DNA from: a virus
DNA: 64,000 bases
Strand: one strand, 5' to 3'
Virus record (IMG/VR): IMGVR_UViG_3300045988_161245
Location: 96,001-160,000 of that record
Positions 15,064-31,635 of this stretch are shown one piece after another. Position 1 is the first letter of the stretch, and every line of letters starts with the position of its first letter. The position numbers were made by a program, and so were the translations under genes. Under the pieces are notes generated by a model, which did no database searches, was not told where the DNA came from, and worked only from the letters and a program-made list of their open reading frames with translations.

Positions 15064-16377
15064 ATGGCAAGACCATCTAATAAAAGTTTTGGAACATGGT
15101 GTGAAGAAAATAATTTAACATATATGATTGATTTATGGGATAATAAATTAAATAAATGCTCACCATATGATATTGCTATGTCAACTGCACATAAGTACTA
15201 CTTTAAATGCAATAGAGGTATTCACGAAAGTGAATTAACATCAATATGCAATATTACTGGCGAAAAGCATTATAGAGTACATTGTAGAAAGTGCAATTCA
15301 TTTGGGCAATGGTGCATTGATAATTCTAAACAAGAATTATTGAATAGGTGGGATAAAAAATTAAATAATTTGGATCCGTTTGACGTTCCATATGGTTCTG
15401 GTAAAAAATATTGGTTTACATGTCCTGTAAATAATCCTAACCACCCAAGTGAACAAAAAATGTTATCTAATGTTGTTCGTCAATCAGGTTCACAAAGATG
15501 TTTAGGATGTGAATCATTTGGACAATGGTGTATTGATAATGTGGATAAAGATTTTATGACAAAATATTGGTCCGATAAAAATACTATTAATCCATTTACA
15601 TTTACATTTCGTTCAGATAGAAAAGTATATATTAAATGCCAGAAAACATCATATCATGACGATTATCTAATTTCTTGTGCTAATTTTGTAAAAGGAAAAA
15701 GATGTTCTTATTGCACTCCTAAAGGACCTACTAAAGTACATAAGTTTGACTCTGTTGGATATAAATTCCCAGATATTTTTAAAATATGGTCAAGTAAAAA
15801 TAAGTATACTCCTTATAATTATACTTTTAGATCGAATAAAAAAGTATTATTTGATTGTCCAAAACATGGTGAATATGAACGAAAAATATGTGATATGTAT
15901 TCATCCTATTTTAAGTGTCCAATGTGCGTACAAGAAGAATCAGCTTCTAAATTACAATATAAAGTAAATTTATATTTAGAATCTCTTGGGTATAAACCTC
16001 TTCACGAACATAATTGCAATCTTCTTCCAAGAAACCCACTAACAAATGCAATTCTTCCATATGATAATGAAATACCAGAATTAAAATTAATTATTGAAGT
16101 AAATGGTATGCAACATTATGAAATAAGTCAGTTTACAGTTTTGTCATCTATGTCGTCAGGAAAAACTCCAGAAGAATGTCTTCAGTATCAAGGAGAGAAA
16201 GATGATTATAAAAGACAATATGCTATAGAGCATGGATATTATTTCTTAGAAATACCATATTTTCTTGATATTGCTTCAGAACCATATAAATATGCAATTG
16301 ATATAGCAATTGATCAATGTAAAGAAAAAATAAGAAATTCTAAAATATCAACCGTAACGACTGCAGGATGTATGTAG
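15064..16377 (+). CDS. intron-encoded homing-endonuclease-like protein (repeated Zn-ribbon modules + PD-(D/E)XK/Vsr-like C-terminus)
   Basis: Four repeats of W..N......WD.KLN..P.D...GS.KKYWF.C plus CxxC, resembling DUF4379 (from memory). The C-terminus LPYDNEIPELKLIIEVNGMQH matches the nuclease core of 541..1497. Confidence 0.65.
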   Translation: MARPSNKSFGTWCEENNLTYMIDLWDNKLNKCSPYDIAMSTAHKYYFKCNRGIHESELTSICNITGEKHYRVHCRKCNSFGQWCIDNSKQELLNRWDKKLNNLDPFDVPYGSGKKYWFTCPVNNPNHPSEQKMLSNVVRQSGSQRCLGCESFGQWCIDNVDKDFMTKYWSDKNTINPFTFTFRSDRKVYIKCQKTSYHDDYLISCANFVKGKRCSYCTPKGPTKVHKFDSVGYKFPDIFKIWSSKNKYTPYNYTFRSNKKVLFDCPKHGEYERKICDMYSSYFKCPMCVQEESASKLQYKVNLYLESLGYKPLHEHNCNLLPRNPLTNAILPYDNEIPELKLIIEVNGMQHYEISQFTVLSSMSSGKTPEECLQYQGEKDDYKRQYAIEHGYYFLEIPYFLDIASEPYKYAIDIAIDQCKEKIRNSKISTVTTAGCM

Positions 16378-16544
16378 TAATATATGTGTTGAAGTTATCC
16401 GTCCTTATATTATAAGGATGTAATATACAGTCTGAACTCACGCAATAATCTAAATTTTATGAAACGTGAGACATAGGTAGAAATGCCTATGCGCCATACT
16501 AATTTTGTGTGGTTAGTAGAGCTTGTCTCGAAAGTAACAGCTTG

Positions 16545-17321
16545 AATAATTTTTCCATCTCCACCGATGGGTTAGCATCAGCATTACAAAGATCAGCATC
16601 TGCTCTTAAAACAGCAGGTAATAATATAGACGAAAGTATAGGATTAATTACGGCAGGCAACCAGGTTGTGCAGGACCCAGAATCCGTTGGTGCCGCAATG
16701 AGAACGATTGCTCTCCGTCTAACAGGAACAAGCGTTGCCGTTCAGCAATTGCAAGAACTTGGCGAAGAGACAGATGGTGTTGTAACAACTGTTTCTAAGC
16801 TTAGAGACGTAATTATGAGCGCAACAAAAGTCGCTTCTAATGGTTTTAAAGGTATAGATATTCTTGATAATAACGGAAACTACCGTTCAACGGCAAGTGT
16901 ATTACAGGATATAGCAGATATCTATAATGAGATCGAAGAAACCGATAAAAAGACCAAAAGTAACAATGTAAATCTTTTGCTTGAAACAATTGCCGGCAAA
17001 AACCGCGCAAATACAGCTGCTAGTATATTGCAGTCACCTGATATTTTAAGGGAAGCAATCGAGTCATCAAAAAATGCGAAAGGCTCGGCAGATCGTGAAA
17101 ATGAGACGTATTTATCTTCGTTAGAAGCTCATATCACCCAACTTCAAACACAGCTCCAAGAGCTTGCAACAGTAACTATCAACTCAGATATGTTTAAAGG
17201 CGTAATAGATACAGCAACCGCCTTTCTTAACATCGTAACTCAGATCCTGGATAAACTTCCACTGCTCTCAACAGCAATTGGTGGTCTTGCAGGATTTAAA
17301 CTTTCAAAAGCAGGTCTGGGT
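16545..17321 (+). CDS. tape measure protein, exon 2
   Basis: NNFSISTDGLASALQRSASALKTAGNNIDESIGLITAGNQVVQDPESVGAAMRTIALRLTG is the typical TMP core. The ORF tail KQLNIKLVSI lies beyond the proposed splice site. Confidence 0.75.
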
Positions 17322-17733
17322 AAACAGCTTAACATAAAGTTAGTTTCAATTTAAAATTTTATCGTAGTTAAGATGCCCATTTGATATGCTGCTGTCATAA
17401 TCGCGACAGTTAGTATAGAACTTGTTCAAGATGGTGATTCGACACCTATTGACAGACCTTTAGCCTTAGAGCTATAAAGCCGAATATCGGAGGAAGCCGT
17501 AATCCACATCACTGTGGTACCTTAGTTCTGAAAATGAATGAAAGGGATATATTGAAGATGGTAGTTCCGACACGTTAGCAAGCACATATGTTTAAATTTA
17601 CAAAAGTGGATGATAAATTCACGAATAAAACGCAATTATAAAAGGAAGAAAGAAATAGAGAGTAGAAAGTTGCAGGTAACAACTCTCCACTCTCTTAAAA
17701 GACTAAAAGGAGATTACAAAAATATGAACTAAA

Positions 17734-17907
17734 CTATTTATTATTTTGGGTGTCATCCTTATAGAATTCTCCAGACATGTCAAATCCTTTCAGGAATCCA
17801 AAATGGATGTGAAAGTTTTTCATGTTCTTAGATGGTATTCTGCGGATTAGCGACCATAGGATTAATAATCCTACAAGAGTTAAAACGAATAGAAATACAT
17901 CTTCCAT
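17734..17907 (-). CDS. small hydrophobic protein (57 aa)
   Basis: Perfect SD aggaaggaggtga lies before the ATG. One TM segment (FLFVLTLVGLLILWSLI). Below the ORF-track cutoff. Confidence 0.35.
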   Translation of the reverse strand: MEDVFLFVLTLVGLLILWSLIRRIPSKNMKNFHIHFGFLKGFDMSGEFYKDDTQNNK

Positions 17908-18364
17908 ATCTCACCTCCTTCCTGTACGAAAGTATCAAGAAAGAGATTTGATGTTGGGAGAATCCCATAGAAATGAATATAATATTTAGAGTACTTCATT
18001 TTAGACAATCTCATTTCTGGTACAAATTGCGTACCAATAATTCAATACTACATGACGACTGTCAGATATACTGTCGTGCAACGGATCATAATGTAGAACT
18101 GTGATCACAAGTATATCTGACTTTGATTGTAGTATAATTGTCTATTTTTGTAAATCCAGAACATATGTGTTTTCATGTAAAAGTGTAGTTTTACAGTTAA
18201 CGTGCGAGAGGCTGACAAAGCATATTATATGTGGCGTTACAACATATAGTATAATATACAGTCCAACCAGGGAAAGCCTGGGTAGCATGATGGATCGAAT
18301 AGTATGGATAGAACCGTGAGGTTACTACTCGCTTACTACCTGAAATGCACTAACTGCACATATT

Positions 18365-18392
18365 CACCACGGCTTGCAAACGTGGTGTTTTT
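18365..18392 (+). terminator. intrinsic terminator inside the intervening element
   Basis: 7-bp stem caccacg/cgtggtg followed by TTTTT. Confidence 0.6.
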
Positions 18393-18424
18393 ATTATTTT
18401 ATTGAAAAAGAAGGTGAATATTTT

Positions 18425-18616
18425 ATGTGTGTTAAAATTTTTGATCATATTTTTTTAATAAGTAATTATGAGGTTATAGATTATTATAATAATGAAGAGG
18501 TAAATAAATTACATAGCCAAATATTACTTTCACCTCAAGATATAAAGGAGTATTTTGAATGGCTCTTTATAAAAGGTAAACATTATTTTTGCGGTCATCC
18601 AGGAGGATTATTGTGA
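18425..18616 (+). CDS. small partner protein, copy 1 (paralog of 29819..30037)
   Basis: SD agaaggtga. MCVKIFDHIFLISNYEV..QDIKEYFEWL compares with MYVKFFDCELFIDSHEI..NNVKDLVEEFL. Its 3' end overlaps the convergent hydrolase gene by 9 nt. Confidence 0.5.
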   Translation: MCVKIFDHIFLISNYEVIDYYNNEEVNKLHSQILLSPQDIKEYFEWLFIKGKHYFCGHPGGLL

Positions 18617-19150
18617 TCTTAAAACAACTGTATTAATATTTGTATTTACATTATTATTTACTTTTGCTCTATCATTTATTATTATTTTCATATCATTAAT
18701 AATGTTAGAAAAATCTTTTTGAGTATCTACAAATAAATCAAAGTCATAATCACCTATAGCCATATAATTTATCGGTAGTAATTTACTAATACGACATTGA
18801 TGTTTTTCAGTACCTATAAGATATATTTGTGGTATTTTACACTTATTAAATCCTACAATAAGTAAATGAATTCCATCATTTGATGCATGATTTTCTTCAT
18901 AATCTTTCACTTCTTTATATACGCATTCTACATCATTTGTGTCTAATAATATTGATTTAATTTCTAAATATATTTTTAGGCAATCAAAATCATTTTTACT
19001 ACCAGCATAAGCAATAACAACTTTATCACTAATTTGATAAATCTTATTCTCGTTTTCAGTAACTATATTACTGTTTTTATCAACGATTCTGGAATCACCG
19101 CACACAATGATATCATTATCTTTAGATATTGCAGCAATAACTAGACTCAT
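18608..19150 (-). CDS. HslV/proteasome-beta-like Ntn hydrolase, Ser1 type, copy 1
   Basis: M-SLVIAAISKDNDIIVCGDSR..NKIYQISDKVVIAYAGSKNDFD..YMAIGD aligns with HslV [49 protein letters not shown]. Confidence 0.65.
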   Translation of the reverse strand: MSLVIAAISKDNDIIVCGDSRIVDKNSNIVTENENKIYQISDKVVIAYAGSKNDFDCLKIYLEIKSILLDTNDVECVYKEVKDYEENHASNDGIHLLIVGFNKCKIPQIYLIGTEKHQCRISKLLPINYMAIGDYDFDLFVDTQKDFSNIINDMKIIINDRAKVNNNVNTNINTVVLRSQ

Positions 19151-19189
19151 GTTATACCTCCAATTTTATATTTTAAATATGTTAAAAAA

Positions 19190-19621
19190 TCATTTAAATA
19201 TTCCATTGGCAATATCGGTAATAAATTTAGGATCAGTAACAGCTACTTTAGCAACTTCTACACATACTGCTGAGATCATATTTATAGAAGAAATACCTAC
19301 AGATTTTAATTTAGCTTTACTCTTCCTCCATATAGAGTCAGGTCTAATTGATTCTGCTAATTTATGTCCTTCGAATGTAACATCATAAATTTTACAGTTT
19401 TCATATTTATAGTTATCATCTATAGAATACGATCCTTCTAAGAATCTTCCGTCAAATAAGTTTTTCACACAATATTGTACATCCTCTTCAGTGTATTTGC
19501 CTGAAAAGTGATCCTTTATATCTTTTAACATAATCCGCTTGAAATCTCCATTAAGTTTCATATTATCTTGTTCTTCAATATATAAGAGTACATCTCTAAA
19601 ACAATCATAGTTTAATATCAT
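19190..19621 (-). CDS. DUF2513-like winged-helix protein
   Basis: SD ggagg lies before ATG 19621. CFRDVLLYIEEQ.. and ..VTFEGHKLAESIRPDSIWRK match the DUF2513 pattern (..GHdFLd.iR....W). The family name is from memory. Confidence 0.6.
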   Translation of the reverse strand: MILNYDCFRDVLLYIEEQDNMKLNGDFKRIMLKDIKDHFSGKYTEEDVQYCVKNLFDGRFLEGSYSIDDNYKYENCKIYDVTFEGHKLAESIRPDSIWRKSKAKLKSVGISSINMISAVCVEVAKVAVTDPKFITDIANGIFK

Positions 19622-19652
19622 ATTCAATCCTCCATAGAAAGGTCGTGAAAAT

Positions 19653-19922
19653 ATGTTGTGGTCAATTTCTGAGACAGAAAATATTGCAACAAAAATTATT
19701 AAATTGTTATACGAAAATAATTGTACTGATGAAGGTGATATTGAAACCACATTTACATTAGTACGAAATCATTTTAAGAATATGTCCATTGATGACATTA
19801 TTAAATTCGAAACAACTGGTAAGATGCCGGAAATTGACGTTCATGGTAATCTTACTCAAATTATAAAACAAGTTTCTAGTCAAATAGCTGATGAGTTTTT
19901 GGAAGAACATGGTATTAAATAG
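19653..19922 (+). CDS. hypothetical acidic protein
   Basis: ORF with a weak RBS gaaagg. Antisense to the minus-strand operon. Its coding status is uncertain. Confidence 0.35.
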   Translation: MLWSISETENIATKIIKLLYENNCTDEGDIETTFTLVRNHFKNMSIDDIIKFETTGKMPEIDVHGNLTQIIKQVSSQIADEFLEEHGIK

Positions 19923-20106
19923 GTTGTTTTCCAGGTTTCCAAGAATACCAACAAGCTGCACACCTGTTCACGGTTTTATTACTTCCTAAGAAACCAGTTA
20001 TCAACGAGTAACCACGCTGTCCGGTAGTGATCTGAGTGCTTCCACAGCGAGGACAGTGAACAGTATTGGTTTTTGTATTAATTTGTATTAGGTTTATTAT
20101 ATTTTT
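19915..20106 (-). pseudogene. orphan Zn-ribbon coding remnant without a start codon
   Basis: The open frame encodes ..TNTVHCPRCGSTQITTGQRGYSLITGFLGSNKTVNRCAACWYSWKPG. This resembles the C-terminus of 21006..21545 (HCPKCNGTNFTP..GFATNKVELVCNNCGY). It has no ATG/GTG/TTG start and overlaps the upstream stop in another frame. Confidence 0.4.
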
Positions 20107-20764
20107 CTATATGTTCCTTTATTGTAGTCTTGACTAAATTATGTAATTTAATTTGATAATTAAGCAATACATTATAATTATATTTTGTTGTTGACAAAAA
20201 ATATTCCGTTATCTCTATAAATAATGAACGAAACATATCTGGTACATACTTATAACTATAAACATATTCGATATTATGCTTTTTAAGTGATGTCAAATAT
20301 CCAACACAATAATATAAAAGTCTTTCGTCACAATATACCTCACCTTTTAAAATAGGATCATTTGGTAATATAAAACTCTCAGTTAAATTTACTATTCCTT
20401 TATCTACATATTTTTTATATGAGAAATTTTCTATTTTTAAATGTATATCCATTTCAACTTCTGAAGCGTGAACTTCAGAATATATGTACATTAATTTAAT
20501 AAAATCTTCAAGCGGATAATTTAATAACTGAGTAGAATCATATACATGTGTGAACTCGTGAAAGAAAATTCCTTTGTATATTTTTGATTCATCTAATTGT
20601 TTGTTAACTTTTAGTATATATTTTTGATTATACAATTCCAATGTATTGAATTGTGCGGCTGCACAATCTCTTTTGTCAACTTCAATATATTCTTGTATTT
20701 CTGGAATTTCATAATATAACTCGTTGTATTCCTTAAATATTTTATCAAGATACTCTTTGTTCAT
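20078..20764 (-). CDS. HExxH zincin-like metallopeptidase
   Basis: FFHEFTHVYD motif. SD aggaga lies before ATG 20764. The family is unassigned; an ImmA/IrrE-like assignment is only a guess. Confidence 0.55.
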   Translation of the reverse strand: MNKEYLDKIFKEYNELYYEIPEIQEYIEVDKRDCAAAQFNTLELYNQKYILKVNKQLDESKIYKGIFFHEFTHVYDSTQLLNYPLEDFIKLMYIYSEVHASEVEMDIHLKIENFSYKKYVDKGIVNLTESFILPNDPILKGEVYCDERLLYYCVGYLTSLKKHNIEYVYSYKYVPDMFRSLFIEITEYFLSTTKYNYNVLLNYQIKLHNLVKTTIKEHIEKYNKPNTN

Positions 20765-20793
20765 TTTTATCTCCTGCATAGAAAGGAATTATT

Positions 20794-21000
20794 ATGATAA
20801 AAAACAAAATGCTAATTATTAGATTAAAACGTGATATATTATATCTAAAGTTTAAGAGTTTAAAAGTAGATATTAAGTTTGCAATTAAAAAAGTATATTA
20901 TAGAATTTTCGACAGCAAAAAGTACCAAAATCTCCTACAAACTCAAAAAGATATGCAAGAGATTTTGGATGCAATTGACGACAGAATGAACTGGGTGTAG
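20794..21000 (+). CDS. hypothetical basic protein
   Basis: RBS gaaagga. Antisense to the minus-strand operon. Its coding status is uncertain. Confidence 0.3.
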   Translation: MIKNKMLIIRLKRDILYLKFKSLKVDIKFAIKKVYYRIFDSKKYQNLLQTQKDMQEILDAIDDRMNWV

Positions 21001-21005
21001 TAGCT

Positions 21006-21545
21006 TTAATTTTCAGCCTTCATTCTATAACCACAGTTGTTGCACACTAACTCCACTTTATTAGTAGCAAATCCCATGAATAGTCCATATTTCTTCCTAA
21101 CCGGTGTAAAGTTGGTGCCGTTACATTTTGGACAATGACGAGTGTTAACTTCCTGCTGTTTTGCATTTTGTTGTGCTAAATATTCATTGTATCTTTTATC
21201 TAATTCTTCTTCAGCCTTGGCATTTATAATGTTCATTTGATTAGTATATTTGATGATGTCATTTGTATATAAATCGAACATTGTTGCAACAAAACCAGGA
21301 TCATTATTACCATATTCACAGAAATTAAACATATCGTTAAAACTCATATTAGGAACTGGTGTTAATTTATTTCCACATCCAGGACATAAATCTAAACTTT
21401 CACCACTAAGAATACCTGCATAATCTTTAGGTTTATTTGAACTTATTGAAAACATAGATTTTGTGCGTCCTTGTGGTTGTTTAAGTTTATTTCCACTTTT
21501 TAAAATGCATTCTCTACAATAATATATAATCTTATTAGAACTCAT
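21006..21545 (-). CDS. double Zn-ribbon protein
   Basis: CRECI..CPGC at the N-terminus and CPKC..CNNC at the C-terminus. SD ggaggt. Confidence 0.5.
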   Translation of the reverse strand: MSSNKIIYYCRECILKSGNKLKQPQGRTKSMFSISSNKPKDYAGILSGESLDLCPGCGNKLTPVPNMSFNDMFNFCEYGNNDPGFVATMFDLYTNDIIKYTNQMNIINAKAEEELDKRYNEYLAQQNAKQQEVNTRHCPKCNGTNFTPVRKKYGLFMGFATNKVELVCNNCGYRMKAEN

Positions 21546-21578
21546 ACGCCAACCTCCAAAATATAATATTATAATGCA

Positions 21579-21607
21579 AGTATAACATTATATTCTCCAA
21601 TATTCAA
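21579..21607 (-). promoter_or_regulatory. sigma-70-like promoter of the minus-strand cargo operon
   Basis: TTGAAT-N17-TATACT on the minus strand. The -35 element lies 3 nt from the proposed 3' splice site. Confidence 0.45.
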
Positions 21608-21610
21608 TTG

Positions 21611-24600
21611 GTCTTTAACTACGATAAAGCAACAGGAAAAGTTGGAAGTAATAAAAATAATTTAGAAAATGCATTAACAGAAGTAAAAGATTTCTTTCTA
21701 AAAAAACAGGATATAGAAAAGCCATATACACTTAGCAAAGATGAATATTCATTTTTTGAGAGAATGAAAAAAGAGCTTTCTGATTCTCAGTTAAATGGAT
21801 CTGCGGAAGATTCTAAAGATGCAATGCTACAACTGGCAGAAGAAATTACAGGTGCAGATAGCTCATTGGTCAAATATATCCAAGACACAGATGTAGCGTC
21901 TGTTTCTCAAGTCGGTTTTGCTCAATCACAAAAAACAGTAATTCAAGGAACAACTAAATTTAGTGCTGTAATGAAAACGGCCGGTGGAGTAGCAAAATCA
22001 TTTGTAGCTACCCTTGGAAGTATGGCTGTAGCCGCCGCAGCAGCTTGGGCTATCGGTAAAGTAATTGAGGGTATTGATTATCTTTATCATTACGATGAAA
22101 ATATCATCAAAGCTGGACAGGAAGCAAAGGATTCCATTGACAGTACATTTAAAAGTTTCGAAGAAGGTAAGCAGTCTATCATGGACCTTGGCTCTTCATT
22201 TGGCAATCAGACAGAGCAGATAAAAAATACCGGTGATGCAATCGATCAAGTTGCCGAAAAATATGTAGAGCTTCGTAAGGGAGTAAATCAGAATACAAAC
22301 GAGAATGTATCATTATCTACAGACGAGTATCAGCAATATATTGATCTCAGTAGTAAGCTTGCCTCTCAGTTTCCTGGTCTGGTAGCAGGTTATGATAGTC
22401 AGGGAAATGCTGTATTAAATCTTGCTTCCAATGCAGATAAGGCTGCTGATAGTATTCGTAATTTATATGAAGCACAAGTTTCTTCTGCAAATGTTGATAT
22501 GGGGAAAAATCTACAAGCAACATATGATGGTGTTGTTACACAGACAAGTCAATATGCTGAGGATATCCAGAAAAAACGTGATGAGTTAGAACAATTAGAT
22601 ACTGATATTTCTGAGAACAAACGTAGTATTTTAACATATGGAAGTAACAATTTTGAAGTACAAGGGCTGTATGGTGATAAAGAAAATGTTATTACTGATG
22701 TTCTAAAAGAGAATGGACTGTATAAAGAAAATACAGGAGATGACGGAAGTATTTGGAACTTCTATGCCGAAGGTCTCGCTGATAAGTCAAAAAAAGAAAT
22801 AGATAGGATGAATGAACAGATTACAGCTGGTTTGGAATCCTATAACTTGTCACTAGAGACTCAAAGAAGCCAACTTCAGAGTGAAATTAACTCCTACGAT
22901 TTAATGATTGAAGATCAATGGCGTAGTATGGCACAATCTCTTGGAAACTATCTTCAGACATCAAAATCATTTAATGAACTTGATGATAGTCTTCAAAGTG
23001 CATTTCTTGCCAACATTTCAAACCTTGACTTAACTGCCTTAAATGATCCAGATGGTAAATACCAAGGACAGGTGCTTGATTTCTTGTATGGAGAATTCAT
23101 TGGACCAATGTCTCGGTTTAGTGCGGATGTACAAGAAAGTCTTGCAGATGCATTACAGATTGATCCTTCTAAATTGACTATTGATGAGTATAAGTCACAA
23201 GTTGATGAAGCATTTAATAAAGCATTTCCAAAGGAAGAAGATGCAGATAAACGAGATAGATTCAAAAACGCTTATGGAATTGATTCTTCTATTGAGGATA
23301 TGGAGGATAATGCATCTCGTCTCAAAGAAGCATATGCAGATTTTCCAAATGCCAGTGATTTTATTGACCATATGCAGACAGGTGATCTGTCAATTGCTGC
23401 ACAGTTAATTGATAATGGTTCAGTTGATATTGAGAAAGGCACAGATGGATTAGTTTCTGCCATTGAAAGATATAAGAAAACGGTAGCTGAAGCAAAATCT
23501 GATACAACTCTTGCTTCTGTTCTTGGCGATTCCGATAATGAAATCTCATCTTCTATTGATTCTTTACAGTCAGATATTTCTTCTTTATCAGATACTCTTA
23601 CCAAGCTTAAAACAGGTGAGTTCAAAGATTCAGATCTCACCGACCTTATTCAACAGTTTCCACAGTTAGCCGATCAAACAGATAATCTTCAAGAAGCTAT
23701 CTCCAATCTTCAGGCAGATAAATTAAAGTCTACTTTGAAAAAAATTGACGATTCTATGGATGGAGCTTCTGATGAAGAGTTAGCTAATGCACAAAAATTA
23801 AAAGATTCTTTAATTAAGTCAGTTGACCTATCTGATATTAATTCAGACAAGATTACAGAATCAATCAAAAGTGCTTTTGAAGGTGATGGCGGAAGTAGGT
23901 ATATTGCTGCAGAACATGGAGCAAAAGCTGCTGAAGAATACAACCAAGCATTTTCAAAAGAACTTAAAAATAGTGCTGGACGAGAAGCTTTCTATAAGGC
24001 AACATTAAATCAAGATGCTGTAAAACAGGGACCTGATGCAATACGTGAATTATATAATCAGTATTTAAAGACAGCCAAAGACATCATCCAAGATACAGAT
24101 ATCCAATCACAGCTTACAAATTATCAGGATAAATACCAGTCACTCTATCAAGCTCAGAAAGATCTAAAGAACGGTCTAATGACTGGTTCTACCAAAAAGA
24201 CATTTCTGGACAAGTTTCCAGATCTTGCAAAGTATGCAGGAAACACTGAAACACTCTCTTCTGCTATTGATGATCTGATGGATTCTATGGACAGTGATGT
24301 AACTAACCAGTTTACAGATGCTATTAAAGCTCTTCAGGATGCCGGACAGTATGCAGATGCAAGTGCATTACAATCTTATGTTGAAGCTGTTTTAGATGGT
24401 GCCCATGATATCGAGGGTGCTTATCAGAAGATCGCAGGTCTTAAAATTCCTACACCTAAGTACGCAGAACTTAAAGAAGCTCTTGAATCTTCAAACGAGG
24501 GTGATCTTTACAATGAACTTCTCTCTCAGTATAAAACCGCAAAAGAGGCATGGGAAAAAGGTGAAGTTGGTACAGATGACTTTAAGTCTTTTGCTTCTAT

Positions 24601-27600
24601 TATTTCTCCTACAGGTGTATCTGATGCAGTAAACTTTGGTGAGAATCAAGCAATGTTTGAAAGATACTTCCAGGATACATCTACTGGTGTTGAGAACTTC
24701 TTAGAAGATCTACAGAAGCTTGACCTTGCTTCTAATGAAAGTGGTCATTGGACCAGTACATTAGGAAATAACCTTGATGAAATGCGAGACGCTGCACAGA
24801 GACTTAATATGGGCTTTGAACCATTTATGATGATGTTTGGTCGTCTCGAAGATTATGGTGCTACTACTGACTTCTTCACTACGGAAGAGGATGGGCAACA
24901 GCATTTATCTGATCTCTATCAGCAGATTGCAGAAAAGAAACAAAAACTTGCAGAAATTAAAGCAGATCCGGATTTAGCTGGCGATCAGTCTGCTATTGAT
25001 TCTCTCAATAAAGATTTAGATGAACTTTATGCGAGAGTAGAAAATACAAAAACTGGAATTGAAGAGCTTCCGGACAAAGCAACTTATTATGAAGCAAAGA
25101 ATCTCGAACAGGCTAAATCAGTTATCACTCAGATGCAGGACGAAATTAATCAGGCAGCTGCAGAAGGAAATGATGAATTAGTCAAAATTCTTGAAAAGAC
25201 TCGTGATCAATATTTAAAAGAAAACGGATATATTCTTAAAGAACAGCCACAAGGTCCAACTCAGCAAGGGACTATTGAAAATCCGTTAGCAAGAGAATTC
25301 ACAAATCCAACTAAATTTGGCGATTATGAGACAGTCATCAAGAAGATTCAGAATGCGACAGATGAACAGACATCTTCTCTTGAGAAAAATCTTAAAGTAT
25401 TAAGCCAATATTCTGAATCTCAGCTCAGTGGAATCAATTTATCCGATGGACAGTATGATACCGGTTTTGAGGATGCCGAACAAGCACTTGACAACCTTTC
25501 TAGCACATTTGGTCTTACAAAAGATCAAGCGGTACAGTTAGCAGCTGTTCTTTCTGATATGGGGCTGATTAAAGCAACTCCTAAAGTTGACTTAACTACA
25601 GTTCAGGATCAGATTGATAATGCAAAAGATGAGTTACAGGATAGTAATATTACTGTTGATTTAGATTTTGATATTTCTACTTCTAGTAAAGAAGAACTTC
25701 AAAAAAAGAGTCAAGAAATTCAGAATGAGCTGAATAATAACGCATCTCTTTCTGATTCTCAAAGAACATCTTTACAGGGAGTAAAAGATTCTGTTGATAA
25801 CCAGGTTGTTACGCTTACAGTACAGGAAAAAGTTGAAAAAGATGGTGATGTAGACGAGCTTCTTGCAATGGATGATCAAACACTTGCCACAACACTTGAC
25901 CTTGATGTTAATAATGCTGACCAATTATCAACAGCTAGGGATGAGCTACAATATATTAAAGACAATCAAGATGCTCAAATTGATATGACTGTTAAACTGG
26001 ATGAGACACAGTTTAATCAGCTATTAGGTGACGGTGAGAACGCTTCTATTGATGTTACAGCAAACAATGAAGAAGCAAAAGAAAAGATAGATGAAGCTAA
26101 GAACTATGCAGAAAGTCAGAAACCTCAAATGAAAATTGATGGCAACAATGATCCTGCTATCAATAAAGGTACTTCTGCTACTCAGATGATCAACAACATG
26201 ACTGGAATTATTAAGGTTAATGCTGACACATCGGGTATGGCAAGTGCTATTAATTCTGAATTGTCAAAGCCTCATACTATCAATATTTCCGCAAATGTGT
26301 CTACGCATGTTAGTGGTGGAACAGGTAAATCTACAGGAACTATGATTAGTGTCGCTCATGCCGATGGAACTGCTTATAATGTTATCAATTATACTCCTGC
26401 TCACGCAAGCGGAAATGTAACACTTTCACATGATGAAACTGCTTTAGTTAACGAAGAAGGCATTGGCGCTGAATCAATTGTGCGTGATGGTAAATGGATG
26501 ATTATTCCTGGTGGTGCCCATTTTGAAAATCTAAAAAAAGGTGACTTAATCTTCAATAAAAAGCAGACATCCGAGCTTATCAATTCAGGACATGTTACAT
26601 CTGGAGGTGGACATGCTAGAGCTTATGCAAATGGTACTGTTGGTGCTTATGCAGGAGGTAATTCTGGTGTTTATTTAAACTGGGATAAAAATCGTACTCA
26701 AGTTGGCAATCAGTCAACATCATCTCCCTCTAATTCCACAATTACCGATAAAAATACAACTTCTGTTAAGAAAAATACAGACACCGTAAATGACAATACC
26801 GAAAAGATAAAAAAATCTACTAAGGTATATGACTGGGTAGAAACTCGTATTAAGCATTGGTCTGATCAGGTTCAAAAAATCGCTGATAAAATCACCGACT
26901 ATATTAAGAAATCACTTAAAACATCTTTGCTCAAACAGCAAATTCGTAAGATGAACTATGAGATTGGTTCAAATGAAAAGGGTGCAAAAGCCTATATGAA
27001 AAAGGCTAACTCTATAGCAAACGAGTACACTTATTACAATAGTGATGGCGAAGAAATTAAAACCAATGTACCAAAGAAATATCAGAAGCTTGTCCAAACA
27101 GGTGCTTATCGTATTGAAGATATGGACACTTCAACAGATCAGGGTAAGGCTCTGGCAGAGGCTATCGATCAGTATAAGACATATTATGACAAAGCACAGG
27201 ATTGTAAACAGGCTGTTGTTGATCTGAAAAAAGAGCAGCTGGAATTGTTTGAACAGTGGGCAAATATGCCAACTGAAAAAGCAGAGCAGAAATTGGAACG
27301 TTTACAAAACGGATTTAATGGATTGAATGCAACTCAGTCAAGGTTATCTGCTGTTCAGACAGGTGGATCAACACAAAAAGCTATAGCAGACGCTGCTACT
27401 GCAAGTTACGAATCAGCACAGGTAGTTACAGAAAAAGCACAATCAAATCTTGACACAGCAACTGCGAAAGCAGATAAGGCAACTACAGCTGTAAATAGAA
27501 AGAAAAAAGCACTTCTTAAATCAAAAGGTCTTACGAATGAGCAGAAAAAAGCTATTAAATCCGGAAAGACTATTGATACCAGTAAGATTACTAACAAGAC

Positions 27601-29755
27601 TACGAAGAAACGTGCCGAAGAGTATAATTCTGCAGTTAAAAATAAAAAGAAAGCAGATTCTAAAAAGAAAACGGCTCAGACTAAATTTAACACTGCAAAT
27701 AAGAATTCTTCATCTCTTAAGACAGATGCAGAAACAGCAATCGCCGGATATCAGGAAGGAAACGAACTTTCCTATATGGATTCCTTAACTGATCAGAATG
27801 TGACACAGACAAAGCAAGCTGCAGATATTAACAACAAGGCTTGGGAGGAAACTAAGAAAAATCTTAACGCACAGGAGAAAGCCAAGAAACAAGCAGACGA
27901 TAAGGTTAGTAAAAAAGCTAAAGCTATTAAGAAAAAGTTTGGTAGTAAACTGAGTGATAATCAGAAAAAGAAATTAGCAGCAGGTAAAGAAATAAATGTC
28001 GATAAGATAAAAGACAAGTCTCTTAAAAAGGCTCTTACAGCATATAATAAATATGTTACTACTGCAGCCGAAACAGAACAGAAATTAAATATTGTCACAG
28101 ATGCAGAATCAACAGCGGCAGCTAATGCAGCGGAATCACAGACAGAAGCAGCTAAAGCCACAGTCGAAGCTATTCAAAGTAAATTTGATAATGCGAAGAC
28201 GTATTATGAAGGATTGTTAGGATATCAGGAAAAGTATAATGAAATGGAAGAAGCAAACATTGATTTATACAATGCTCATGGAAATTATGAGCGTTCTTCT
28301 GATTATGAGATTAAGATCTCAAATACTGAAAGTCTGAGAAATATTGCACAGGATAAAGTTGATGAGCTTGAGAAAAGATTTCAAGAAGGTGTTGATAATG
28401 GCACAATTGTAGAAGGATCTCAGGAATGGATTAATATGAAATCCGAGATTGTAGAAGCAAAAAAAGCTGTAACCGATTACGACACAAGTATTGAAAATCT
28501 GAAACAGCAACAAATTGGTGTTTATTATGAAGAACAGTTTGATCGTGCAATAGAGAAAATTGATCAGTTCAAGGACCGTATTGATATACTAAATGAAATC
28601 ATCTCTGATGATATGAAAGTTGATAAGAATACTGGACTACTTACAGAATTGGGAGCTACTTCTGTAATGTTGAATAGAAATCAGTTTTCTGCAAATCAGA
28701 AAGAAATACAAAAGCTTCTTGAAAAAGAAAATGATGTGAAAAAACGATACGCTAATGGCGAAGATATGTCTTCTGAATTTGGCGAAAAGACTTATGATGA
28801 ATATATAAAAGACATTCAGTCTAAATATAATTCTTTAATTTCATCAAATAGTTCTCTTCAAAATGATATGCTCTCTCTTGTCAAAAATCAGGCTCAAGCA
28901 GAACTTGATGCTCTTAATAAAGTAATATCTAAGCGTAAGGAAGCCCTTTCCGCAAAGAAAGACTATTACGATTACGATAAAACTTTAAAGGATAAGACTA
29001 AAGACATTCAGATCCTTGAACGTCAAGCGGCAGCTCTCCAGGGTTCAACAAACGCTGAAGATAAAGCACGTTTGGCAAAGATCCAGGAACAATTATCAGA
29101 TGCAAGAGAAGATCTTTCTGATACTATGACAGACCATGCTTTCAGTATGCAAAGTGATGCGCTTGATAAATTATCCTCAGATATGAGTGATGATTTTGAC
29201 AAATGGTCTAACGACATAAGCTCTAACGTAGAGAAAATGAGTAAAGCTATTAATGAAGCAGTTTCAAATTCTGCTCTTAGTAATGCGCAGGTTCTCAATA
29301 ATCTTTCTACTATTCTGAAAAATGTTGGATTAACAGATGAGCAGGTTAACTCTACATTATCAGGACTTACCGGTTATGCTTCCGGAACTGACTATGTTCC
29401 AAAATCTGGTATGTACAGAGTTAACGAAAATGGAATGGAATCTGTACTGTCAAGAAAATACGGTACTCTCACATTCTTAAATCAGGGCGATAAAGTATTT
29501 ACAGCAGACTTCACCAAGAGACTTATTGATAATGCAGGTATTGCCACACAGAGTAGTCAACCACAATTTGGCGAGATGTATAAGGAACTTATGAATGCGA
29601 TTACCAACACAAACAATCAGTCTTATGAACATAGTACAGTTTACAATATTGTTGTAAATGAAGCTACTGATGCAAACGCAGTAGGTGATATTGTCGTTAA
29701 GAAGATCGATGCATACGAAAAGAAGCGTGTAAGAGATTTTAAGAGTCTCAGATAA
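21611..29755 (+). CDS. tape measure protein, exon 3
   Basis: The frame is open from 21575, but there is no SD or ATG near that point. The product is a 2714-aa coiled coil with a hydrophobic segment (GGVAKSFVATLGSMAVAAAAAWAIG). It carries the TMP C-terminal-type motif twice. Confidence 0.7.
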   Translation, partial: VFNYDKATGKVGSNKNNLENALTEVKDFFLKKQDIEKPYTLSKDEYSFFERMKKELSDSQLNGSAEDSKDAMLQLAEEITGADSSLVKYIQDTDVASVSQVGFAQSQKTVIQGTTKFSAVMKTAGGVAKSFVATLGSMAVAAAAAWAIGKVIEGIDYLYHYDENIIKAGQEAKDSIDSTFKSFEEGKQSIMDLGSSFGNQTEQIKNTGDAIDQVAEKYVELRKGVNQNTNENVSLSTDEYQQYIDLSSKLASQFPGLVAGYDSQGNAVLNLASNADKAADSIRNLYEAQVSSANVDMGKNLQATYDGVVTQTSQYAEDIQKKRDELEQLDTDISENKRSILTYGSNNFEVQGLYGDKENVITDVLKENGLYKENTGDDGSIWNFYAEGLADKSKKEIDRMNEQITAGLESYNLSLETQRSQLQSEINSYDLMIEDQWRSMAQSLGNYLQTSKSFNELDDSLQSAFLANISNLDLTALNDPDGKYQGQVLDFLYGEFIGPMSRFSADVQESLADALQIDPSKLTIDEYKSQVDEAFNKAFPKEEDADKRDRFKNAYGIDSSIEDMEDNASRLKEAYADFPNASDFIDHMQTGDLSIAAQLIDNGSVDIEKGTDGLVSAIERYKKTVAEAKSDTTLASVLGDSDNEISSSIDSLQSDISSLSDTLTKLKTGEFKDSDLTDLIQQFPQLADQTDNLQEAISNLQADKLKSTLKKIDDSMDGASDEELANAQKLKDSLIKSVDLSDINSDKITESIKSAFEGDGGSRYIAAEHGAKAAEEYNQAFSKELKNSAGREAFYKATLNQDAVKQGPDAIRELYNQYLKTAKDIIQDTDIQSQLTNYQDKYQSLYQAQKDLKNGLMTGSTKKTFLDKFPDLAKYAGNTETLSSAIDDLMDSMDSDVTNQFTDAIKALQDAGQYADASALQSYVEAVLDGAHDIEGAYQKIAGLKIPTPKYAELKEALESSNEGDLYNELLSQYKTAKEAWEKGEVGTDDFKSFASIISPTGVSDAVNFGENQAMFERYFQDTSTGVENFLEDLQKLDLASNESGHWTSTLGNNLDEMRDAAQRLNMGFEPFMMMFGRLEDYGATTDFFTTEEDGQQHLSDLYQQIAEKKQKLAEIKADPDLAGDQSAIDSLNKDLDELYARVENTKTGIEELPDKATYYEAKNLEQAKSVITQMQDEINQAAAEGNDELVKILEKTRDQYLKENGYILKEQPQGPTQQGTIENPLAREFTNPTKFGDYETVIKKIQNATDEQTSSLEKNLKVLSQYSESQLSGINLSDGQYDTGFEDAEQALDNLSSTFGLTKDQAVQLAAVLSDMGLIKATPKVDLTTVQDQIDNAKDELQDSNITVDLDFDISTSSKEELQKKSQEIQNELNNNASLSDSQRTSLQGVKDSVDNQVVTLTVQEKVEKDGDVDELLAMDDQTLATTLDLDVNNADQLSTARDELQYIKDNQDAQIDMTVKLDETQFNQLLGDGENASIDVTANNEEAKEKIDEAKNYAESQKPQMKIDGNNDPAINKGTSATQMINNMTGIIKVNADTSGMASAINSELSKPHTINISANVSTHVSGGTGKSTGTMISVAHADGTAYNVINYTPAHASGNVTLSHDETALVNEEGIGAESIVRDGKWMIIPGGAHFENLKKGDLIFNKKQTSELINSGHVTSGGGHARAYANGTVGAYAGGNSGVYLNWDKNRTQVGNQSTSSPSNSTITDKNTTSVKKNTDTVNDNTEKIKKSTKVYDWVETRIKHWSDQVQKIADKITDYIKKSLKTSLLKQQIRKMNYEIGSNEKGAKAYMKKANSIANEYTYYNSDGEEIKTNVPKKYQKLVQTGAYRIEDMDTSTDQGKALAEAIDQYKTYYDKAQDCKQAVVDLKKEQLELFEQWANMPTEKAEQKLERLQNGFNGLNATQSRLSAVQTGGSTQKAIADAATASYESAQVVTEKAQSNLDTATAKADKATTAVNRKKKALLKSKGLTNEQKKAIKSGKTIDTSKITNKTTKKRAEEYNSAVKNKKKADSKKKTAQTKFNTANKNSSSLKTDAETAIAGYQEGNELSYMDSLTDQNVTQTKQAADINNKAWEETKKNLNAQEKAKKQADDKVSKKAKAIKKKFGSKLSDNQKKKLAAGKEINVDKIKDKSLKKALTAYNKYVTTAAETEQKLNIVTDAESTAAANAAESQTEAAKATVEAIQSKFDNAKTYYEGLLGYQEKYNEMEEANIDLYNAHGNYERSSDYEIKISNTESLRNIAQDKVDELEKRFQEGVDNGTIVEGSQEWINMKSEIVEAKKAVTDYDTSIENLKQQQIGVYYEEQFDRAIEKIDQFKDRIDILNEIISDDMKVDKNTGLLTELGATSVMLNRNQFSANQKEIQKLLEKENDVKKRYANGEDMSSEFGEKTYDEYIKDIQSKYNSLISSNSSLQNDMLSLVKNQAQAELDALNKVISKRKEALSAKKDYYDYDKTLKDKTKDIQILERQAAALQGSTNAEDKARLAKIQEQLSDAREDLSDTMTDHAFSMQSDALDKLSSDMSDDFDKWSNDISSNVEKMSKAINEAVSNSALSNAQVLNNLSTILKNVGLTDEQVNSTLSGLTGYASGTDYVPKSGMYRVNENGMESVLSRKYGTLTFLNQGDKVFTADFTKRLIDNAGIATQSSQPQFGEMYKELMNAITNTNNQSYEHSTVYNIVVNEATDANAVGDIVVKKIDAYEKKRVRDFKSLR

Positions 29756-29765
29756 ACACAGGATG

Positions 29766-29796
29766 GCGTAGTGTCACAGCTACGCTCTCTTTTATT
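29766..29796 (+). terminator. weak terminator after the TMP gene
   Basis: Stem gcgtag/ctacgc followed by tctctttta. Confidence 0.35.
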
Positions 29797-29818
29797 AATT
29801 TTGAACAGAGGTGCAATT

Positions 29819-30037
29819 ATGTATGTAAAATTTTTTGATTGTGAATTATTTATTGATTCACATGAAATAAAAATAAAAAATAAAAGAGGAAGTTCCGGAC
29901 AATCTTATGGCGAACATTTTATTCCACCAAATAATGTAAAGGATCTCGTTGAGGAATTTCTAGTTCCAACTGTGTATCAACATAAGTGTATTGAAGAACT
30001 TATGAAAAGAAAACCAGATCCTAACATTAAGTGGTAG
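29819..30037 (+). CDS. small partner protein, copy 2
   Basis: SD agaggtg. Paralog of 18425..18616. Its 3' end overlaps the convergent hydrolase gene by 11 nt. Confidence 0.5.
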   Translation: MYVKFFDCELFIDSHEIKIKNKRGSSGQSYGEHFIPPNNVKDLVEEFLVPTVYQHKCIEELMKRKPDPNIKW

Positions 30038-30587
30038 GCGATATATTTTCATTAGCAGTAACCGTACCATTAATTGATGAATCTGTTCTAGCTCTTTCTT
30101 CAATCATTTTTGCAATTTTAAATTTGATTGCTTTAATATCATCATTTTCTTTATCAAAATTTAATACACAATCCAAATCTCCTATAGAGACAGTTCTTTC
30201 TTTAAAATAGTCATAGTTGCCAATAGCTGTTTCACTAGCTCCAATAACATACAAATGTGGATTATTATTACTATCATAACCGGCAGCTAAAAAATGTAAA
30301 TCACCTTTTTCATTTTTATAATTTTCTTTTTCGTATTTTAAAGCTTCTTTATAGATGCTATCAACATCCCATTTACTGTAGTCAAGATGAACTAAATTTA
30401 TATGTATTCTTAAAGGTGTTATTTTTGTATCGTGACCAGCAAAAGCAACAATTAAAGAATTGTTAAATTTAAAGACTTTTCTTGTATCTTCTGTAAGAAC
30501 TTCATTAGTTATTGGATTTACAGATCTTCCTTCTCCGTACACAATAATATCATTATCTTTTGAGATTGCAGCAATTACTAGACTCAT
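30027..30587 (-). CDS. HslV/proteasome-beta-like Ntn hydrolase, Ser1 type, copy 2
   Basis: The first 16 aa (MSLVIAAISKDNDIIV) are identical to copy 1. This is followed by YGEGR..RKVFKFNNSLIVAFAGHD..SIGD. SD gggagag lies before ATG 30587. Confidence 0.65.
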   Translation of the reverse strand: MSLVIAAISKDNDIIVYGEGRSVNPITNEVLTEDTRKVFKFNNSLIVAFAGHDTKITPLRIHINLVHLDYSKWDVDSIYKEALKYEKENYKNEKGDLHFLAAGYDSNNNPHLYVIGASETAIGNYDYFKERTVSIGDLDCVLNFDKENDDIKAIKFKIAKMIEERARTDSSINGTVTANENISPTT

Positions 30588-30627
30588 CTTCTCTCCCATC
30601 CTTCAAACAAATCTATATATAAAATCC

Positions 30628-30656
30628 ATTATGATTCAAGTAATAATTTTTGTCAA
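30628..30656 (-). promoter_or_regulatory. sigma-70-like promoter for 30027..30587
   Basis: TTGACA-N17-CATAAT on the minus strand. Confidence 0.5.
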
Positions 30657-30687
30657 TAATAGTCTGAATAGAAAGTAGGTGATTAAT

Positions 30688-31635
30688 ATGGCTATATTTG
30701 GCTCTTCTTTTACATATAACGGAAAATCTTCCGATGATTTTGGAGTTATTATTTGTGCCTCTGAACAGCCAGAATCAATTCCAATGGGATTAACAAGAGA
30801 AATTTTAAAAGGTGAAATTACAAGCAGACGACCTGTATCAAATTGGTATAATACAAAATATTCAGATGTACTTACATTTGAAGTAACAATTACCAAACCT
30901 GAAAATCGTGCTTTTTCAAGAGAAGAAGTTAGAGATATAAACGCCTGGTTAACAGGACCACGTACACCTACTCTTCTATTTTTTGAAGATGAAGCTTTTG
31001 ACCCTATTAATTATTATGGAGTTTTTACAGATGTAACTAACGTATATGGCAGTGGTGTTTTAATGCTTACATATACATTTACTGCAGATTCCCCATATGG
31101 ATGGAGTAACGAACGTGAGTTTGCTTACAACAACTTAGAGAATTGTTTACTTACAGTAAATGATAAAAATGTATCTGTAAACAATAAAAATGTTGAGGTG
31201 ACAATTCAAAACGCAGAATTATTTGAAGTGAACAATGATACAGATGAGATTGGTGATTTTACATATCCGTTAATAGCAATTTATTCTTATGCAGGTACGC
31301 AAATTACAATTGATAATTATTCCGAAATTTCTACTGATGATTTATTAAGTCATAGTCTTACTCTTACAATTCCAAATGCAATTGATTACACAAATCCACT
31401 TTATATAGATTCAAAAAATCATAAAATTTATTATTACAGTAATACAAAGAAAAAGAATATTCCGGTTCAATTATCCGATCTTGGGGTTACATCTGACAAC
31501 CTTACAAATTTAGATAATGGTAGTTTGGGATTATATTGGGTTAGGTTAGTTCCTGGTGTAAACAAATTTAAAATAACAGGTGGATGCAGTATTAAAATGA
31601 CATTCAGATGCCCAAGAAAGGTAGGTGCCTATTAA
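30688..31635 (+). CDS. distal tail protein (Dit)-like
   Basis: Lies directly after the TMP region. The N-terminus FTYNGKSSDDFGVII..ILKGEITSRRP is typical of siphovirus tail-family proteins. Confidence 0.6.
   Translation: MAIFGSSFTYNGKSSDDFGVIICASEQPESIPMGLTREILKGEITSRRPVSNWYNTKYSDVLTFEVTITKPENRAFSREEVRDINAWLTGPRTPTLLFFEDEAFDPINYYGVFTDVTNVYGSGVLMLTYTFTADSPYGWSNEREFAYNNLENCLLTVNDKNVSVNNKNVEVTIQNAELFEVNNDTDEIGDFTYPLIAIYSYAGTQITIDNYSEISTDDLLSHSLTLTIPNAIDYTNPLYIDSKNHKIYYYSNTKKKNIPVQLSDLGVTSDNLTNLDNGSLGLYWVRLVPGVNKFKITGGCSIKMTFRCPRKVGAY

Follow-up and report, generated by a model that had tools for sequence, protein, structure and literature searches.

Two copies of a polymorphic hydrolase cassette beside the tape measure gene of a large human-gut phage

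Two convergent gene pairs at the tape measure gene

We analysed a 64,000-nt stretch of phage DNA (positions 96,001 to 160,000 of IMG/VR record IMGVR_UViG_3300045988_161245; hereafter, the window), and in particular a pair of genes that lies directly behind the gene for the tape measure protein (TMP). The pair forms a cassette of ~0.75 kb: a minus-strand gene for a hydrolase with an N-terminal Ser (copy 2), and a small open reading frame (ORF) on the other strand, small partner ORF B, that converges on the hydrolase gene and overlaps its 3' end. A related pair, copy 1 and small partner ORF A, is found in an island between parts of the TMP gene. In large human-gut phages this accessory cassette of two genes is polymorphic, and the window has two paralogous copies of it, one of them behind the TMP gene (Table 1). 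The original prediction, made from the letters of this DNA, had placed a second copy of a proteasome-like module after the TMP stop, in a region beginning at 29819. We found that both copies match Pfam family PF00227 (Proteasome), with 34.2 bits for copy 1 and 25.6 bits for copy 2 against a gathering cut-off of 22.4, and that 29819 is the first base of small partner ORF B.

The relatives with which we compared the window (loci L001 and so on) are ~160-222-kb human gut metagenome phage contigs that encode a YomU-like tube protein, RusA and a giant TMP. The cassette occupies two slots. Slot A is the island bounded by the TMP part that bears PhageMin_Tail and by the TMP ORF of 2,700 aa, where copy 1 is the last large gene of a leftward operon; slot B lies between the TMP stop and a DUF6558 distal tail gene.

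Table 1. Features of the cassettes and their surroundings (window coordinates unless a locus is named)
Feature	Location	Strand	Description
TMP ORF, first	13030-14772		phrog_4211 positions 497-720
TMP ORF, second	16509-17354		phrog_4211 positions 722-942
TMP ORF, third	21608-29755		phrog_4211 positions 945 onward
Terminator-like hairpin, island A	17657..17695	minus	strong; 17 pairs and T-run
Small partner ORF A	18425..18616	plus	63 aa (MCVKIFDHIFLI...); convergent with copy 1, 9-nt overlap; omega 0.09-0.25
Copy 1	18608..19150	minus	180 aa; type 1 proteasome-like hydrolase; Asp at the position-17 equivalent
HExxH gene, island A	20078..20779	minus	FFHEFTH; putative metallopeptidase-like; weak Pfam M76 match
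Terminator-like hairpin, slot B	29765..29786	plus	with T-run; between TMP stop (29755) and small ORF; right-hand flank of slot B
Small partner ORF B	29819..30037	plus (late-operon strand)	72 aa (MYVKFFDCELF...); AGAGGTG ribosome-binding site; overlaps copy 2 3' end by 11 nt
Copy 2	30027..30587	minus	186 aa, starts MSLVIAA; type 2 proteasome-like N-terminal nucleophile hydrolase; convergent with small partner ORF B
5' patch of copy 2	30540..30587	minus	MSLVIAAISKDNDIIV; 16 codons; active-site strand and hairpin; probable left crossover zone for swaps
Sigma-70-like promoter, slot B	30628..30656	minus	TTGACA-N17-CATAAT, 11/12 match; 40 nt upstream of copy 2 ATG; directed against tail operon
Type 1 (copy-1 type)	slot A: window, L007, L021; slot B: L016-L020
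Type 2	slot A: L001, L009-11, L022; slot B: window, L004, L012, L015
Type 3	slot A: L014; slot B: none seen
224-aa HExxH protein	L032 18682-19356; L035 18198-18872; L036 19243-19917; L037 3883-4557		HELMH; weak DUF6782/M78 matches

We assigned the start of copy 2 to an MSL that is common to all homologues; an ATG further upstream, at 30599, lacks a usable ribosome-binding site (RBS). BLASTP aligned copies 1 and 2 at 32% identity (E 9e-27), and residues 1-16 are the same in both. An AlphaFold2 model of copy 2, built from an alignment of 24 family members, is an alpha-beta-beta-alpha sandwich (predicted local distance difference test, pLDDT, 91.7; predicted template modelling score, pTM, 0.89) that contains helices H1 (residues 53-66) and H2 (residues 75-89) and, after the second sheet, one helix only (residues 151-168). 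When this model was compared with the Protein Data Bank (PDB) by Foldseek, the best 50 matches were all 20S proteasome subunits, nearly all of them beta (TMq 0.60-0.77, best E 5e-9), with beta subunits reaching TM 0.70-0.77; matches in BFVD were uncharacterised phage proteins and one phage HslV. A profile of the 24 members matched proteasome subunits of the PDB marginally (best E 5e-6) and HslV far lower (4hnz_A, E 0.0067). The family is narrow: we found 41 homologues of copy 2, and among 1.84 billion representative proteins there were 17 at E<1e-10 and 230 at E<1e-3. Searches of INPHARED phage records, by distant-setting blastn with 29700-30800 and by tblastn with copy 2, gave no match, and in 185,579 GTDB species genomes the 341 pattern matches included 0 relatives, yielding no host or prophage evidence.

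The columns kept in the family alignment are M1-S2, D/E19, R21, K37, G51, G103 and G136. Glu19, Arg21, Lys37 and Gly51 of copy 2 correspond to Asp/Glu17, Arg19, Lys33 and Gly47 of the proteasome; in an hhalign comparison with an approximate Thermoplasma beta sequence, K37 fell on Lys33 and the AFAG glycine on Gly47, at low probability and with position 17 one off. The residue after the initiator Met is Ser in core members and Thr in distant ones, and a propeptide is absent. The Ser would become residue 1 once the Met is removed, and its interchange with Thr is as expected of a working N-terminal nucleophile (Ntn). Gene-wide omega, the ratio of the nonsynonymous (dN) to the synonymous (dS) substitution rate by an NG86 implementation, is 0.16-0.36 for the peptidase. 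The original prediction had also pointed to YGEGR in copy 2 against CGDSR in copy 1. Both motifs are present as read, but the Glu is not an oddity of copy 2, as had been thought: it is the norm across the type-2 clade, and the Thermoplasma proteasome beta subunit likewise carries Glu17. Beside this Gly-Glu catalytic motif, codon 17 of copy 2 (30537-30539) specifies Tyr in place of a nearly invariant Cys17; the Tyr is also found in the 99%-identical IMG/VR contig L014, and the closest database cluster, P0001, has Cys.

We are highly confident that these are real Ntn-fold genes with intact catalytic residues. If the protein were instead a non-catalytic scaffold or decoy with a proteasome fold, the conservation of its N terminus would reflect an interaction surface only. 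Such a role would agree with an invariance that reaches a surface hairpin (K10-D13), beyond catalytic need, with the loss from the model of one of the usual four flanking helices, and with the Tyr of copy 2. However, the full catalytic set is kept, including Lys33, Gly47 and the Ser/Thr1 interchange in distant relatives, and we consider a scaffold very improbable.

Each peptidase homologue is followed by a convergent small ORF that overlaps the peptidase 3' end (its called length is 63-88 aa, or 63-72 aa when counted from the conserved Met). We found that these small ORFs are mutually homologous (M-x-V-K-x-F-D ... V-K-[DE]-x-x-E), have good RBSs and show omega values of 0.09-0.59; for small partner ORF B, omega is 0.13-0.36 and the database homologues number 21. 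The homology is seen only via multi-locus alignment, as BLASTP of ORF A against ORF B of the window gave no match. The pairing of peptidase and small ORF is kept in the deeply diverged P0044 (MSIILAAISKKGD...) and P0047 (MTLVIACITKYKK...). Between loci in unlike contexts, DNA homology is limited to ~720-780 nt, which begin at most a few bases from the ATG of the peptidase gene and end where the small ORF starts. At least five cassette types exist, co-varying in both genes, and the cassette has a guanine-plus-cytosine (GC) content of 24-28%, versus 36% for the TMP gene.

Copy 2 is preceded by the TTGACA-N17-CATAAT site that had been predicted as its promoter, which is the best sigma-70-like match in 17-32 kb of the window. 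The diverged L012 and L015 have kept the two hexamers and their 17-nt spacing in surroundings that have changed. The 130-400 nt upstream of slot B, including promoter and RBS, are identical in the window (type 2) and in L016/L017 (type 1), and in L037 the same promoter precedes a gene for an HExxH protein. Because the same promoter and RBS stand ahead of different cargo, the promoter appears to belong to the slot: to judge from these sequences, it stays in place and the cargo is a type-1 peptidase, a type-2 peptidase or an unrelated HExxH peptidase-like gene. On the other side of slot B, the terminator-like hairpin is kept as a flank in L017, L004 and L009.

Constraint and exchange at the active-site strand

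Over codons 1-16, copies 1 and 2 are identical at 44/48 nt, and all 4 differences are synonymous. The original prediction had estimated ~47/53 identical nt at the 5' end, confined to a short patch; we counted 48/53, and found that the identity is indeed localised, with an ungapped identity of ~33% beyond the patch and of ~30%, i.e. unrelated, over the 200 nt upstream. The peptide MSLVIAAISKDNDI is invariant in the 24 aligned members, which are otherwise as low as 26% identical to copy 2, and MSLVIAAISKDNDI(I/V)V is invariant in 41/41 close homologues. At the protein level, such a patch clearly exceeds what chance would give. Across pairs, patch dN is 0 and patch dS is 0.5-1.75. Invariant residues together with varying synonymous sites indicate purifying selection at the protein level, not conversion between the two copies of the window. 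A DNA- or RNA-level function of the patch was likewise considered, and was rejected because its synonymous sites vary freely.

Either gene conversion or very strong selection had been suggested as the origin of the patch. If the 5' identity came from recent conversion between the copies in this genome, and not from selection, then the contrast between 44/48 nt and ~33% would be explained, as would a dS that, for the copies of the window, is lower in the patch (0.52) than in the rest of the gene (1.13). Against this, family members from many contigs all carry these 16 residues unchanged, and the synonymous sites of the patch differ freely among relatives. In addition, the fraction of identical residues that use the same codon in the two copies of the window, 11/15 in the patch and 26/44 elsewhere, shows no significant excess (Fisher p=0.37), and synonymous variants of the patch go with the flank of the slot, not with the partner copy. 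Recent conversion is thus largely refuted already, and we regard it as extremely improbable. Selection stands, as does an exchange via the patch between slots and genomes.

Evidence for this exchange comes from loci that are identical on one side of the patch only. Between the window and L016/L017, identity is 100% over the stretch from -400 to ORF nt 47, drops to ~33-50% after that, and is complete again at the small-ORF RBS. L009 (type 2b) and L014 (type 3) have the flank and ORF nt 1-34 in common, and L021 equals window copy 1 up to nt 41 and L018 from nt 28. Conversely, the gene bodies of L009 and L011 are 100% identical from nt 49, with 4 synonymous differences in the patch and unrelated DNA upstream. 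These junctions, at ORF nt 47/48, 34/35, 28-41 and 48/49, point to at least four independent cassette swaps with a crossover at ORF nt 28-49; the other crossover of the swaps is at the start or RBS of the small ORF. In near-identical gene pairs, synonymous differences are significantly more frequent in the patch than in the gene body (p=1.5e-4, 1.9e-4), and the patch variants follow the flank (slot), not the cassette type. L021 and P0030 are intragenic chimeras. Recombination between the two sites, which had also been suspected, is seen at the population level: type-1 and type-2 cassettes are each found at both sites, with crossovers inside the patch. Together, these data suggest that the patch is fixed by selection at the peptide level, and that the resulting near-identity of ~48 nt is used by homologous recombination to swap cassettes between slots and genomes. 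We consider the cassette, and its swapping at the patch, quite probable.

The content of the slots varies among the relatives. Slot B of L014 is identical to that of the window, the unusual Tyr17 included. Genomes with two copies recur (e.g. L014, L034, L042), and the Ntn copy number across loci ranges from 0 to 2. In slot B, L009 has an unrelated 58-aa ORF, and L032, L035, L036 and the 222-kb L037 have 1-3 small partner ORFs followed by the antisense gene for a 224-aa HExxH protein, the Ntn gene being absent there. The 224-aa HExxH gene always adjoins a 63-aa 'MEVSFFNF' member of the small-partner family, and this member is an orphan in L016-L020. Orphan small ORFs occur alongside complete cassettes in L016-20 and L034; among the loci examined, we saw no peptidase without a small gene. 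The locus of L036 has no Ntn gene at either slot. This 63-kb contig, which holds orphan small ORFs and no proteasome-like gene, also carries in its island A a pair of genes (3857-6134; a 507-aa transposase and a 253-aa IstB-like ATPase) that we judged from sequence appearance to be IS21-like, and that hints at long residence in a cell.

The original prediction had raised a link to TMP processing. As tail or TMP maturation proteases, the peptidases would cleave the TMP or other tail proteins in assembly. The TMPs of many siphophages undergo proteolytic processing, in each of the relatives examined TMP ORFs adjoin the two slots, and the small ORF is co-oriented with the TMP gene and immediately downstream of it. 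However, the peptidase gene is antisense to the late operon and has a host-type promoter, and the window and L017 differ in cassette type despite 100% identical TMP 3' ends and flanks. Slot B, moreover, takes the 58-aa ORF or the HExxH gene instead, and copy number falls to 0, as at both slots of L036. With cassette type uncoupled from the adjacent TMP, the link is not supported, and we hold a maturation protease to be decidedly unlikely. A Connectase-like ligation of two TMP parts was also considered; it was rejected, as the fold features do not fit and loci without any Ntn gene exist.

A proposed pair of effector and late antagonist

The locus has, by sequence, the layout of a noncontiguous operon: a minus-strand promoter for the hydrolase, a small ORF on the late strand between the TMP gene and the distal tail gene, and an 11-nt overlap of the 3' ends. 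This architecture, with an antisense effector behind a host-type promoter, a late-strand partner behind the TMP gene, overlapping 3' ends and at least five co-varying types, leads us to propose that the cassette encodes an effector and its late-expressed cognate antagonist. We put the probability of this reading at roughly 45%.

In this proposal, the hydrolase would be a compact proteasome-beta/HslV-like effector peptidase, transcribed antisense to the tail operon from its own sigma-70-like promoter in slot B and within the leftward island operon in slot A. Made from a host-type promoter, either early in infection or in a carrier or lysogenic state, it would attack a protein, either the host's or that of a competing phage. 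The role of the small protein would be that of a cognate antagonist, of a factor for self-protection or of a guard over the phage's own target, and its synthesis, alongside the tail proteins, would occur only while the late operon is transcribed; late read-through, being antisense to the peptidase gene, would also silence the peptidase. Orphan small genes would neutralise non-cognate types of peptidase, and the orphans found in full-length genomes, which belong to several types, fit such antidotes. Finally, the invariant patch would be held by catalytic and structural selection, and would double as a homology handle for the exchange of types. The alternation of Ntn and HExxH families under one promoter, beside one small-protein family, suggests proteolysis as the shared activity.

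Several observations weigh against this proposal. The presence of one small-protein family beside two unrelated peptidase-like families is odd for a specific inhibitor, and may mean that the small protein guards a target. The physical linkage of overlapping genes may by itself give two-gene co-variation. The promoter motif match alone is not beyond chance: the 64-kb window (33% GC) holds 7 sites of at least 11/12, compared with 5.6 +/- 2.4 in first-order Markov simulations, and support for the promoter comes from its placement and from the hexamers and 17-nt spacing kept in the diverged L012 and L015. L009 keeps the slot-B promoter though it faces just the 3' end of an unrelated ORF. The AlphaFold2 model of the small partner is poor (pLDDT 60, pTM 0.33), and a PADLOC-DB v2 search with both peptidases, both small ORFs and the island genes gave no match at E<=0.1. 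Lastly, there is no integrase in the 64-kb window and no relative in GTDB, such that constitutive expression in a lysogen may not apply. As for the host, the endolysin domains (NlpC/P60, PG_binding_1 and SH3) suggest a Gram-positive bacterium.

The same architecture could also serve host takeover or anti-defence, with an early peptidase that degrades a host defence or regulatory protein and is switched off by the small late protein and by antisense late transcription. In slot A, the neighbours of the cassette in its antisense island are other accessory genes (for DUF2513, HExxH and Zn-ribbon proteins); in addition, rapid diversification fits an arms race against host targets, and absence from GTDB genomes fits a virulent lifestyle. 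Arrays of orphan small genes of several types are, however, hard to explain if the small protein merely times its own enzyme, and there is no identifiable clue to a host target. We therefore consider this explanation unlikely; if a host-takeover protease is what the cassette encodes, it would still be a new class of phage effector.

Linkage and mobility bear on a further possibility, that the cassette is a selfish, toxin-antitoxin-like addiction element, kept because its loss is penalised and without benefit in phage-phage or phage-host conflict. Its genes are tightly linked, overlapping and co-varying, it moves between slots and genomes, and its GC content is low. Yet the convergent layout, with an antidote reliant on read-through of the late operon, is unlike known toxin-antitoxin operons. 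Orphan antidotes without a toxin are common, peptidases lacking the small gene were not seen, and no PADLOC or toxin-antitoxin family was matched. These features make addiction decidedly improbable.

Within the proposal of an effector and a late antagonist, the conflict might centre on the TMP itself, as a protease/anti-protease arms race among related large gut siphophages. The proteasome-like (elsewhere HExxH) peptidase of a resident or first-arriving phage would destroy the TMP, or another tail or injection protein, of its competitors. The phage's own assembly would be shielded by the cognate small protein, translated right behind the TMP ORFs; orphan small genes would be stockpiled against other peptidase types, and the 16-codon catalytic strand would be the recombination handle for trading specificities. 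We regard this extension as quite unlikely. If true, a proteasome homologue of phages would for the first time have an assigned biological role, and interference with tail assembly or entry would gain a new enzymatic class.

The surroundings of copy 1 have a similar organisation. In island A (17355-21607), small plus-strand ORFs alternate with larger convergent minus-strand genes, in the pairs 18425-18616/18608-19150 (Ntn), 19653-19922/20078-20779 (HExxH) and 20794-21000/21006-21545 (Zn ribbon). Gene calls in relatives also include the 89-aa and 68-aa plus-strand ORFs. The logic of an effector with a late-strand partner may extend to several of these pairs. The island-A HExxH gene resembles the 224-aa protein of L032 at the motif level. 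Downstream of copy 1 is a 57-aa minus-strand ORF (17734-17907) with a predicted hydrophobic helix and a weak Pfam Imm32 match (E 0.011, under the cut-off); it is followed by the hairpin that likely ends the leftward island-A transcription unit, copy 1 included.

Other elements of the window and its relatives concern the TMP gene and mobility. The TMP is colinear with PHROG profile phrog_4211 (2625 positions) over three ORFs (13030-29755), the third of which has a TTG start and no obvious Shine-Dalgarno sequence. The first TMP gap holds an HNH homing-endonuclease ORF (phrog_559; 15064-16377, plus strand). In relatives, apparently the same place holds a LAGLIDADG endonuclease, other small genes or nothing (L022 7823-8503; L024 1142-1822; L001, an intact 851-aa ORF), and the TMP gene seems to contain a hot spot for homing endonucleases or introns here. 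Rfam searches, of the window at the gathering threshold and of 29600-30900 and 14600-21800 by E-value, gave no RNA family at the cassette or the TMP gaps, and no intron model in the latter. Elsewhere, two tandem group I introns (5354-5660 and 5700-5987, plus strand; Rfam 82 and 72 bits, above the gathering threshold) lie between ORFs 4782-5462 and 5983-6750. A Tn7/Mu-like transposition module (57835-61725, minus strand) comprises TniQ (57835-58647), TniB/AAA (58644-59879) and a transposase with rve and Mu-transposase C-terminal domains (59872-61725), and could bear on how or whether the phage integrates. A 160-kb relative (L004/L005) carries, among its genes for tail fibres, a tyrosine recombinase (Phage_integrase and SAM_4; 1008-2000) that could serve as an integrase or as an invertase for fibre switching.

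Comparison with known systems

Proteasome-like homologues outside the 20S core include HslV/CodW, BPH, Anbu, the phage-linked PPH, AAH and CPH, and Firmicute clusters FC1-5 (Fuchs, Alva & Lupas 2021, PMC8665760). Like these, the cassette hydrolases are compact, lack a propeptide and have a phage/Firmicute link, and they are predicted to share the alpha-beta-beta-alpha Ntn fold and the Thr/Ser1-Asp/Glu17-Lys33 triad with Gly47; unlike them, they are only marginally similar to solved members, and the model has one helix after the second sheet. They do not group with HslV: HslV chains rank far below 20S chains, and the PHROG HslV family is matched weakly and by copy 1 only (E 0.0028). We found no AAA+ unfoldase in the loci examined, which for the window cover 64 kb of a ~213-kb genome. 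PPH (~140 aa, without H2; PMC8665760) does not fit in length or structure. Connectase lacks helices H1 and H2 and has a two-helix insertion between S3 and S4 (PMC8665760), whereas the copy 2 model has both helices and no such insertion. For the clusters of non-20S homologues, neither function nor partner gene is described, and the phage homologues are catalogued without a known role (PMC8665760); the present locus gives them a concrete, testable context. Our literature searches on proteasome-like proteins with tape measure proteins, or on functions of phage-encoded HslV, returned nothing relevant, and in the literature searched we found no prior description of the small-gene pairing, of fixed TMP-flanking slots, of polymorphic types with orphan arrays or of a crossover patch in the catalytic strand.

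The closest experimental precedents for the layout are two immune/counter-immune pairs in noncontiguous operons of temperate phages, Tai/Ati of phi80 and relatives (PMC11364771) and Tha/Ith of S. aureus 80alpha (PMC11087260). As in these systems, a gene that has a promoter of its own runs against the operon that holds the candidate antagonist, the partners come in matching versions, and the genes are accessory and horizontally exchanged. The differences are that the putative effector here is a proteasome-like Ntn hydrolase, with no sequence relationship to the Tai protein or the HEPN RNase, and that the genes converge, with overlapping 3' ends, inside a tail operon. If our proposal is true, the principle of noncontiguous-operon defence with self-immunity extends to a proteolytic effector and to gut phages of ~210-220 kb. 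A defined promoter and partner, at least five natural types, chimeras and orphans together constitute a ready-made cross-inhibition matrix.

A second parallel is Tab of Pseudomonas phage JBD26, a late-region moron that targets the TMP and acts, in related phages, on TMP-dependent tail assembly, and anti-Tab, a late-operon counter-defence protein that prevents self-targeting (PMC10884400). The placement beside the TMP gene and the small late-strand partner are alike; Tab, however, is a non-enzymatic protein of 83 aa encoded between terminase genes, and no homology was found. Polymorphic cassette swapping and orphan arrays, seen here, are not described for Tab/anti-Tab. The use of a short, protein-constrained coding patch as the crossover of modular exchange, visible at nucleotide resolution, may represent a general mechanism of phage mosaicism.

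Polymorphic toxin-immunity loci (CdiA-CT/CdiI, Rhs and colicin-type) combine a conserved N-terminal part and a variable remainder with adjacent cognate immunity genes and orphan arrays. The cassette is similar in its replacement at a conserved/variable junction, its small adjacent partner and its arrays of orphan partners. It differs in that the hydrolase is a single domain of 180-190 aa with no delivery or secretion domain, the 16 conserved residues are the catalytic strand, the genes are convergent rather than tandem, and the system is phage-internal. Phage morons, such as HK97 gp15, are independently transcribed low-GC inserts between conserved late genes, with their own promoter. The cassette, too, is a low-GC insert with its own promoter that is variably present among relatives; unlike in a moron, promoter and flanks make up a fixed slot, whose cargo, two genes on both strands, can be exchanged.

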